From the sequence record MT682706.1: a stretch of 43,757 nt of DNA; one strand, 5' to 3'. The notes beneath the pieces are model-generated. The model was not told where the DNA came from. It saw only the letters and a list, made by a program, of their open reading frames with translations, and did not search any database. The stretch is from Escherichia phage vB_EcoS_FP. This document shows, piece by piece, positions 3,990-4,243 of the stretch. Each line of letters starts with the position of its first letter. Position 1 is the stretch's first letter. Position numbers and translations under genes: made by a program.

Positions 3990-4243
3990 TTAAAAAGAGC
4001 TTGCATCACTGACCGGAATTATCTAACATTAATCACGTAGGCAAACGAGGCCACCAAGTGGCAACGGCGCACGGAGCGCAATTACTAAGCCCGCAGCTCA
4101 TTAGGTAGCGTATGCGGCACCATGGACCAAGAGGATAAGGCGTAAACCTCACTCCCTTATGGGACTTGTAAGACCTAACGCAAATAGGCATATTAATCGG
4201 CTGTATCAGGCAGCCCCGGAGCCGTAACCGGGACTCATTCAAA
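3990..4243 (+). ncRNA. candidate structured RNA / tRNA leader (GC-rich, multiple hairpins)
   Basis: No plausible ORF; sigma70-like TTGCAT, 17 nt, TAACAT at about 3990-4018; hairpins GCCACcaaGTGGC, GCGCacggaGCGC, CCCGG..CCGGG; GC content above genome background. Confidence 0.3.

Follow-up and report, generated by a model that had tools for sequence, protein, structure and literature searches.

A stretch of 43,757 nt from Escherichia phage vB_EcoS_FP (MT682706.1; hereafter the window) very likely encodes an unannotated structured noncoding RNA that is conserved across Drexlerviridae and has its own σ70-type promoter. The RNA occupies positions 4036–4243 of the + strand. Sequence comparison indicates that it is independent of the transfer RNA (tRNA) gene that follows and that it represents a new family of RNA, though of a kind that is broadly known. 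The phage is a member of Braunvirinae (Rtp-like) in Drexlerviridae, the T1 family of coliphages, and its nearest records are OzMSK and Msk with ~91% identity across the region. The best reading is a discrete, stable structured RNA that is predicted to act in trans, to which we assign a probability of roughly 0.4.

Covariation of the helices

Nineteen Braunvirinae representatives were aligned by sequence only (MAFFT) and analysed with RNAalifold and by pair counting. The resulting fold comprises five well-supported helices (H1–H5), counted as seven helical segments. In this alignment 99.1% of the cells pair, as opposed to 25–42% in controls with the partners slid by 1–3 columns. Ten pairs are changed on both sides, whereas shuffles yield 6.5 ± 1.1 (0 of 500 reach 10) and the slid controls 0–1. 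U-G is the majority pair at 62–82 (13/19 sequences) and at 254–260 (16/19). These pairs would be A-C mismatches on the complementary strand; thus, the + strand RNA is the folded strand. Across subfamilies, in an alignment of 38 sequences with a register set by hand from the structure, 98.5% of the cells of the 5' domain pair (57.7% in shuffles, 19–44% in slid controls) and the covariation score is 0.937 versus 0.207. Absence of covariation across homologous regions had been named beforehand as an outcome that would refute an earlier, sequence-only reading of this stretch; strong covariation was found instead.

That reading had also taken the stretch to be noncoding and richer in GC than its surroundings. 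Both hold: the GC content is 0.50–0.54 in the RNA region and 0.38–0.41 in the flanks, and the + strand of 4036–4243 contains no plausible open reading frame (ORF). The sole long ORF is a Cys/Arg-rich antisense frame of 69 residues with a TTG start (4033–4242). It is not conservable because the element of the relatives is 157–293 nt long with indels that are not multiples of three; insertions come and go around a constant core. No conserved ORF is found over the RNA on either strand in the relatives compared. In MK213796 (T1), IME18, Eco_BIFF and other GenBank records, coding sequences of hypothetical proteins are drawn across the RNA. The ORF candidates in the RNA region of T1 are short ORFs or antisense TTG-start ORFs only. 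These annotated coding sequences are probably over-annotation.

The compensatory changes in five helices and the strand-specific G-U pairs make it extremely unlikely that the region has no function at the RNA level, being instead a passive tRNA leader or decaying sequence, a DNA site (pac, origin or operator) or a small coding gene. Conservation in subfamilies without a tRNA, the lack of a conserved ORF and the indel lengths point the same way. The nearby terminase genes, the hypothetical proteins in GenBank and the insignificant z-score of the folding energy (see below) would be in line with such explanations.

Architecture of the RNA

The coordinates of the RNA and its neighbors are listed in Table 1. 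The three perfect hairpins that had been noticed from the sequence alone are present exactly as described and correspond to H1, H2 and H5.

Table 1. Features of the RNA locus in the window.
Feature	Position	Strand	Remarks
A-rich stretch TTAAAAAGAG	3990–3999	+	close upstream of the -35; conserved in all Braunvirinae relatives
σ70-type promoter	4001–4029	+	-35 TTGCAT (4001–4006), 17-nt spacer, -10 TAACAT (4024–4029)
RNA element	4036–4243	+	between small early-type ORFs (upstream) and tRNA-Arg(TCT) (downstream)
5' tail CGUAGGCAAACGAG	4036–4049	+	single-stranded, 14 nt; family consensus CGURRACAnAMGAG
H1, GCCAC-CAA-GUGGC	4050–4062	+	4/4 outer pairs covary across 38 sequences
H1-H2 linker AACG	4063–4066	+	invariant in 38/38 aligned sequences; single exception seen, AACU in locus L202
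H2, GCGC-ACGGA-GCGC	4067–4079	+	purine-rich GNRA-like loop; stem invariant within Braunvirinae
H3	4089–4118	+	Braunvirinae-specific; outer CCGC...GCGG, inner GCU/AGC, asymmetric internal loop; 100% of cells pair
Variable insertion	4131–4164	+	hairpins GAGG-AUAAGGCGUAAA-CCUC (4131–4150) and UCCC-UUAU-GGGA (4153–4164)
Small hairpin CCUA-ACGCAAA-UAGG	4174–4188	+	in most Braunvirinae; absent in TR2 and ES
H4, GGCUG-UAUCAGG-CAGCC	4199–4215	+	three covarying pairs: CG:10/UA:8; UA:11/CG:8; UG:16/AU:2
H5, CCCGG-AGCCGUAA-CCGGG	4215–4232	+	loop motif ..CC-GUAA conserved; two pairs covary in Braunvirinae
3' tail ACUCAUUCAAA	4233–4243	+	runs to the tRNA 5' end (predicted RNase P site)
tRNA-Arg(TCT)	4244–4321	+	ARAGORN; Rfam tRNA model, 55 bits
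orfA	4353–4535	+	phrog_16862, PHROG of unknown function
orfB	4522–4704	+	phrog_2919, CxxC protein, PHROG of unknown function
Strong intrinsic terminator	4749–4771	+	closes the operon
Extended -10 promoter TGGTATAAT of terS	4783–4791	+	directly after the terminator; TGCTATAAT in locus L181
terS	4815–5321		downstream of terminator 4749; followed by HNH endonuclease and terL
Terminators (examples)	4749, 7479, 11418, 11758, 14074, 15099, 18499, 20620, 24069, 28981	+	

The first part of the RNA is a single-stranded tail followed by two short hairpins. Four positions of the tail (G2, U3, A13 and G14) do not vary across subfamilies, and several others hardly do. H1 has 4–5 bp and a variable loop throughout the family, with the stems GCCAC, CCAUC, CUAGC, CGGC, GCCC, GCGC and GCUC; the Braunvirinae-only alignment already contains the variants CCAUC/GAUGG and CUAGC/GCUAG. 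One pair of H1 is GC in 14, CG in 13, AU in 7 and UA in 4 of the 38 sequences. H2 occurs with at least nine stems across subfamilies, all of them paired (GUGAC, GUAGC, GCCAG, GCAUC, GCAGC, GUGGC, GCGGC, GUGAG and GCGC), and one of its pairs is GC in 16, UA in 12 and CG in 9 of the aligned 5' domains. The loops of H2 (RCGGA, GCGAUA, GCGAAU, ACGAUU and GAGAAA) are GNRA-like with one or two extra bases. On its 3' side H2 is followed by an A-rich linker across the family.

The central part is less uniform. H3 carries GC to AU double changes in TR2 and ES, and its pair 62–82 is a strand-specific wobble (U-G in 13, C-G in 3 and U-A in 3 of 19 sequences). The variable insertion is kept, lost or replaced among relatives, and its first loop repeats the CGUAA motif. 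The CCUA/UAGG pairing of the small hairpin is read from the sequence only; the consensus fold instead pairs a 2-bp stem there (columns 172–173 with 180–181, corresponding to window positions 4179–4180 with 4187–4188).

The 3' module exists in two forms. In the Braunvirinae, T1 and P-K7R types H4 and H5 are adjacent and the H5 loop ends in CC-GUAA. In the short forms a single long hairpin makes up the module, interrupted by an asymmetric internal loop (5' A(U)GG / 3' CC-RUAAG(A)). The H5 stems of other subfamilies are GCCGC/GCGGC, GCGGG/CCCGC, GUGGG/CCCAC and GGGGG/CCCCC, and the loop ends in CCGUAA or UCGUAA. After the last hairpin, the long forms (Braunvirinae, T1-type and the loci L185, L194, L195 and L207) have tails of the type ..AUUC(A), with a tRNA or a ribosome-binding site (RBS) next, and the short forms have U-rich tails that end in ..UC. 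Sequence conservation is concentrated in loops and linkers. Furthermore, CGUAA recurs in three places (5' end, H5 loop and insert loop), and CUCAUU occurs twice.

Three further pairings were considered and not adopted. A P1 pairing of the 5' GUAG with CUAC after H2 is present in several minimum free energy (MFE) folds of Braunvirinae and is unconserved in T1 and most Tempevirinae. A kissing interaction of the H2 and H5 loops (ACGG/CCGU) and a contact of GG in the H4 loop with CC in the H5 loop suit some lineages, but MM01 and JeanPic speak against the pairing and neither contact is established. TR2 and ES lose both partners of the candidate loop-loop contacts together.

Promoter and transcript start

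The sequence-only reading had recognized the promoter TTGCAT-17 nt-TAACAT but placed it at 3990–4018, ~11 nt upstream of its true position (4001–4029). The promoter agrees with the consensus at 7/12 positions by count, and for this reason it stays below the threshold of a consensus scan and was missed. It is backed by conservation rather than by match quality. Its geometry is constant in all 56 distinct sequences of the family sample, with a -35 hexamer (TTGCAT in Braunvirinae or TTGACN), a spacer of ~17 nt and a -10 hexamer. The distance from the -10 to the CGU... of the 5' tail is 6 nt in every member inspected. From this spacing, the transcript would start at 4036/4037.

Similarity among Braunvirinae starts abruptly at the A-tract and the -35. 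Further upstream the sequences diverge completely and the ORFs vary by lineage. The A-rich stretch is a possible UP-like element.

Distribution in Drexlerviridae

BLAST with the stretch of the window returned 88 Braunvirinae phage records with 72–92% identity, and in 19/19 fetched representatives the same unannotated gap is present upstream of a tRNA-Arg. A first covariance model gave weak full-length matches at the syntenic position of two distant contigs without a tRNA, whose terS is 44% identical; the covariance-model searches spanned the fetched loci and the model E-values are rough. In this distant short version, a TTGACG-17-TAACAT promoter precedes the same 5' tail, H1, the AAC linker and H2, with the loop ACGGA kept on a GUGAC/GUCAC stem. 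At its 3' end a long hairpin with a U-tract is followed at once by an RBS and an ORF.

When Drexlerviridae loci were fetched by the conserved upstream ORF, the element was found in 43 of 44. T1 carries it at 7586–7751 between ST58 and ST57, where it is unannotated. By version, BLAST returned 74 records for the T1 type and 46, 42 (Samwise-type) and 104 (P-K7R-type) for the Tempevirinae types. The hosts of these records are Escherichia, Shigella, Klebsiella, Salmonella, Citrobacter, Enterobacter, Cronobacter and Hafnia. In total, several hundred Drexlerviridae records share promoter and RNA at this syntenic position.

A search of the whole window with the 5'-domain model and filters off gave one copy (30.8 bits, E = 1e-8). 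There is no second copy in the genome; the next best match is partial with 10.8 bits. Loose-pattern scans of metagenome and viral collections returned mostly chance GC-rich sequence, and after filtering only Drexlerviridae-like contigs were present among the matches listed, which suggests that the element is absent outside Drexlerviridae.

None of the 4227 models of Rfam 15 matches the window at the gathering threshold or at E ≤ 10, and the T1 and Tempevirinae versions gave noise only (≤18.5 bits, compared with gathering scores of 40–81). The covariance-model search for a known family, which had been proposed as a check, thus has no match to offer for the region. Searches of the literature on noncoding RNA or transcriptomes of T1 and Drexlerviridae, and with conserved sequence strings, gave no description of the RNA. 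The RNA is outside every Rfam 15 family and may be among the unnamed candidates of PMC10690425.

The tRNA slot

The feature following the RNA varies by lineage. It is a tRNA-Arg(TCT) in most Braunvirinae, a tRNA-Arg(CCT) in TR2, Rao1 and ES and a tRNA-Ser(GCT) in locus L194 (2102–2189) and LF82-11-like phages. Elsewhere orfA or orfB follows directly; T1 and Tempevirinae have no tRNA, and an RBS and an ORF come at once. Thus, the tRNA is a passenger inserted just past the tail and is not part of the RNA family. The slot looks like a hot spot of tRNA gene insertion or exchange. That different tRNA genes land at this very spot is explained by its place at the start of a strongly conserved unit of transcription, which consists of promoter, RNA, (tRNA), (orfA), orfB and terminator and is located just upstream of the terminase genes.

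Three explanations had been offered from the sequence alone. A long tRNA leader is literally correct for this phage, but the term does not suit T1 and Tempevirinae, where promoter and RNA are present without any tRNA, nor the lineages that carry different tRNAs after the same RNA. The remnant of a second tRNA-like element or of an intron finds no support: ARAGORN finds one tRNA only, and no tRNA-like element was detected in 3850–4243 either by ARAGORN or by the Rfam tRNA (RF00005) and group I/II intron models at E ≤ 10. The third explanation, a small regulatory RNA co-transcribed with the tRNA, is the best fit in view of the conserved promoter, the fixed putative 5' end and the covarying helices.

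In the tRNA-Arg(TCT) of this phage, the acceptor stem contains a C4:U69 mismatch and the T-loop reads TTCAAATCC. Its counterparts in close relatives pair perfectly along the stem (GCTCCGC/GCGGAGC), and their T-loop is mostly TTCGAATCC. The loci L017, L018 and L019 have tRNA-Arg(CCT) in the identical slot (about 1069–1210). The record of locus L012 (PQ314493.1) annotates a 102-nt 'tRNA-Ile' (995–1096) right after the tRNA-Arg that is not called by ARAGORN and may be a spurious or unusual tRNA.

A discrete RNA predicted to act in trans

For this phage, we predict a primary transcript that starts at ~4036/4037 and runs into tRNA-Arg. RNase P generates the mature 5' end of every tRNA, and its cut at 4243/4244 would free an RNA of ~208 nt. 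In the relatives, a terminator-like hairpin with a U-tract, or else processing within the AU-rich tail, would set the 3' end. In many members without a tRNA, a long GC-rich hairpin and a U-tract close the RNA, which would yield a discrete 3' end. The freed RNA is predicted to bind a protein or possibly a small ligand of the phage or the host via its conserved loops. It would neither regulate the tRNA nor pair with messenger RNA (mRNA). Such a partner is suggested by the conserved loops, among them the GNRA-like one of H2, and by the recurring motifs CGUAA and CUCAUU; a concentration of conservation in loops and linkers is also what recognition by a partner would produce.

Several observations weigh against this prediction. 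The folding energy reveals no excess stability (MFE -58.1 kcal/mol; shuffles -58.8 ± 4.4 kcal/mol; z = 0.16). The figures of the 38-sequence alignment (A4) lean towards the structure owing to its hand-set register, although the diversity per position in the 5' domain would still be hard to get by chance. In T1-type and P-K7R-type members neither a terminator nor a U-tract follows H5 and the RBS is located 8–10 nt downstream; here the RNA would formally be a 5' untranslated region, and action in trans would need processing. The orfB product has no recognisable RNA-binding fold according to Pfam, PHROGs and its predicted structure. Finally, the literature searches brought up no expression, end-mapping or stability data for any family member.

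The RNA might instead be a riboswitch-like or protein-responsive 5' leader that controls orfA and orfB in cis by attenuation or RBS access, with the tRNA inserted later. In all tRNA-less members the last hairpin is located 6–14 nt before a strong Shine-Dalgarno (SD) sequence (CAGGAG or AAGAGG), in many of them hairpin and U-tract are attenuator-like, the fold has conserved junctions and, wherever an orfB homologue was looked for downstream, it was seen (T1, L181, L186, L008, L017 and L011 among others). The internal loop of the short forms appears to resemble the 11-nt GNRA-tetraloop receptor, a likeness expected of an aptamer. However, a terminator is lacking between 4036 and the tRNA in this phage, and likewise before the tRNA in all Braunvirinae, which disfavors a classical attenuator or riboswitch. 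Moreover, RNase P would detach the leader, and yet the RNA is conserved, even enlarged, where the mRNA would be severed; control of the downstream RBS in cis is therefore unlikely. The U-tract is lacking in T1-type and P-K7R-type members, no conserved alternative pairing (antiterminator or anti-SD) is seen and no Rfam riboswitch model matches even weakly. Altogether, a leader of this kind is unlikely.

Even less probable is a base-pairing small RNA (sRNA) that uses the 5' tail as a seed for host or phage mRNA, possibly with Hfq. Short forms share two features of Hfq-dependent sRNAs, namely AAC repeats, here in the linker, and a 3' end resembling a terminator; in addition, the unpaired 14-nt 5' end is conserved. 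Sites complementary to the 5' tail are at chance level in the window, with four at ≤3 mismatches compared with 2.8 expected, one of which is the element itself. BLAST against E. coli genomes gave no similarity or antisense match, although short seeds would escape it. Conservation is mostly found in structured parts that a seed does not need, the U-tails are short or absent and no terminator follows the RNA in this phage. A discrete RNA with a protein or ligand partner remains the preferred reading.

Neighboring genes and the late terminators

Two tiny hydrophobic ORFs (MNKELNEILSNITLGVFIGLIVLAVIL and MSELKIWFIAGLITWVAF) are located at 3838–3972, between a conserved FVWTSGYLKGRVG protein and the promoter of the RNA. 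The second one is present in many, but not all, Braunvirinae.

For orfA and orfB (~60 residues each), Pfam and PHROGs searches return no family of known function. A homologue search with orfB gave only close relatives. The AlphaFold model of orfB has a β-β-α-β fold with a predicted local distance difference test (pLDDT) score of 86, whereas the other four models reach 53–62. Comparison of the orfB model with the PDB gave no significant neighbor, the best E-value being 0.23 (PurS and archaeal ribosomal protein LX-like folds). In T1 and Tempevirinae orfA contains a basic TRYKKRF stretch; this stretch is lost in the present phage and the ORF is missing in L181.

The terminator at the end of the operon and the terS promoter are arranged in the same way in L181, and this arrangement is annotated in T1, EC3a and MM01. 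Downstream of terS, the ORF of the HNH endonuclease (5390–5902) precedes terL and runs with its 3' end into the longest terL frame (5787–7466). This slot matches the position of rtp20 in phage Rtp. The late + strand cluster (4749–29000) contains at least nine strong canonical terminators with GC-rich stems and tetraloops, and the first 20 kb have 34 terminator-like sites (17.5 expected). Several of the late terminators, e.g. those at 7479, 11758, 15099 and 18499, abut the RBS and start codon of the next gene. There is no room for a promoter and, therefore, the genes behind them depend on read-through or antitermination.

These terminators bring up an RNA that modifies RNA polymerase (RNAP) in cis during transcription. 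Its nascent 5' domain would attach to the elongation complex, alone or together with a small phage protein, and processive antitermination or anti-pausing, put-like or nut-like with a boxB-like hairpin, would allow reading through 4749 and the late terminators. The element is located at +1 of a conserved promoter with fixed spacing, like putL (PMC9378689), and its 5' domain consists of two short hairpins with conserved linear segments. With a 5-bp stem and a 5–6-nt GNRA-like purine loop, H2 is in the size class of boxB. The tRNA downstream and the cut by RNase P would be tolerated, because put works after loss of its tether to the downstream RNA (PMC9378689). On the other hand, put and nut are paired and there is one copy of the element per genome; no boxA (CGCUCUUUA-like) is present in the 5' tail, and the stems of put are long and bulged, unlike H1 and H2. 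As terS has its own extended -10 promoter after the terminator, the late genes do not depend on the RNA promoter, and in many members the conserved 3' hairpin is itself terminator-like. A universal N-like protein is absent as well, given the fate of TRYKKRF and of orfA. On balance, a modifier of this kind is rather unlikely.

Implications of a conserved T1-family RNA

T1 is a classical coliphage, and Drexlerviridae are among the enterobacterial phages isolated most often. They are part of the BASEL collection, serve in phage therapy work and are met as contaminants of fermentations. The RNA is shared by T1 and phages of Klebsiella, Salmonella, Citrobacter and Hafnia, yet it is unannotated or mis-annotated as hypothetical proteins. 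Hence, it would be an unrecognised core part of the Drexlerviridae gene expression programme. With standard laboratory hosts and phages, its function is open to direct testing.

A bolder reading sees in the RNA a new class of riboregulator that does not act by base pairing. It would either reprogram host RNAP, independently of proteins or assisted by a small protein, to let a single promoter serve the terminator-studded late operon, or act as a high-copy aptamer or decoy that sequesters a host factor or an immune signalling molecule. We consider this reading unlikely; if true, all T1-like phages would have this ancient trait in common.

Comparison with known systems

The element differs from type III antitoxins (ToxI-like), since no tandem direct repeats are present in 3900–4400 and the downstream ORFs of ~60 residues have no family match. 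It also differs from riboswitches and attenuators, as there is no expression platform before the tRNA and a hairpin with a U-tract is found in only some tRNA-less relatives.

The likeness to lambda nut consists of an H2 with a 5-bp stem and a purine-rich, GNRA-like loop of 5–6 nt near a promoter that heads a terminator-ended operon. In contrast to nut, there is no boxA-like sequence, no universal arginine-rich N-like protein and a single copy. Across the family H2 has a stem of 4–5 bp and the loops ACGGA, GCGGA, GCGAUA and GAGAAA, and the resemblance to boxB is one of size and purine content only. Presumably, the H2 loop (RCGGA or GCGAUA) differs from known boxB loops.

The put RNAs of the lambdoid phage HK022 (putL and putR) are antiterminators that act in cis and suppress terminators via the zinc-binding domain of the RNAP β' subunit. 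Each has ~70 nt, which form a triplex and two long stems with bulges (PMC9378689). Like put, the present element is a structured phage RNA at or near +1 of a host-RNAP promoter, with two stem-loops and conserved unpaired bases. It is also placed just after an early promoter, as the RNA starts ~7 nt past the -10 in the members inspected. Unlike put, which has long stems and two copies per genome that share sequence, it has one copy, two short hairpins of 4–5 bp and a separate 3' module. Its carriers are virulent T1-like phages rather than lambdoid ones, and the likeness is one of description.

Covarying elements upstream of phage genes with no assigned function are also represented by the GP20 motifs of Rfam and by the 8,495 candidate structured RNAs from IMG/VR (PMC10690425). 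Unlike the GP20 motifs, the T1-family RNA matches nothing in Rfam 15.

By description, the T4 tRNA cluster provides a further parallel. Its species 1 and 2 (rnaC/rnaD) are stable structured non-tRNA RNAs that are co-transcribed and freed by the tRNA-processing machinery. Their function has been enigmatic for decades, and they are not known outside T4-like phages. In contrast to these species, which are located inside a multi-tRNA cluster, the RNA described here has its own promoter and most members have no tRNA. Judged by analogy, its closest counterparts are the promoter-proximal RNA elements of phages and these stable RNAs of T4.

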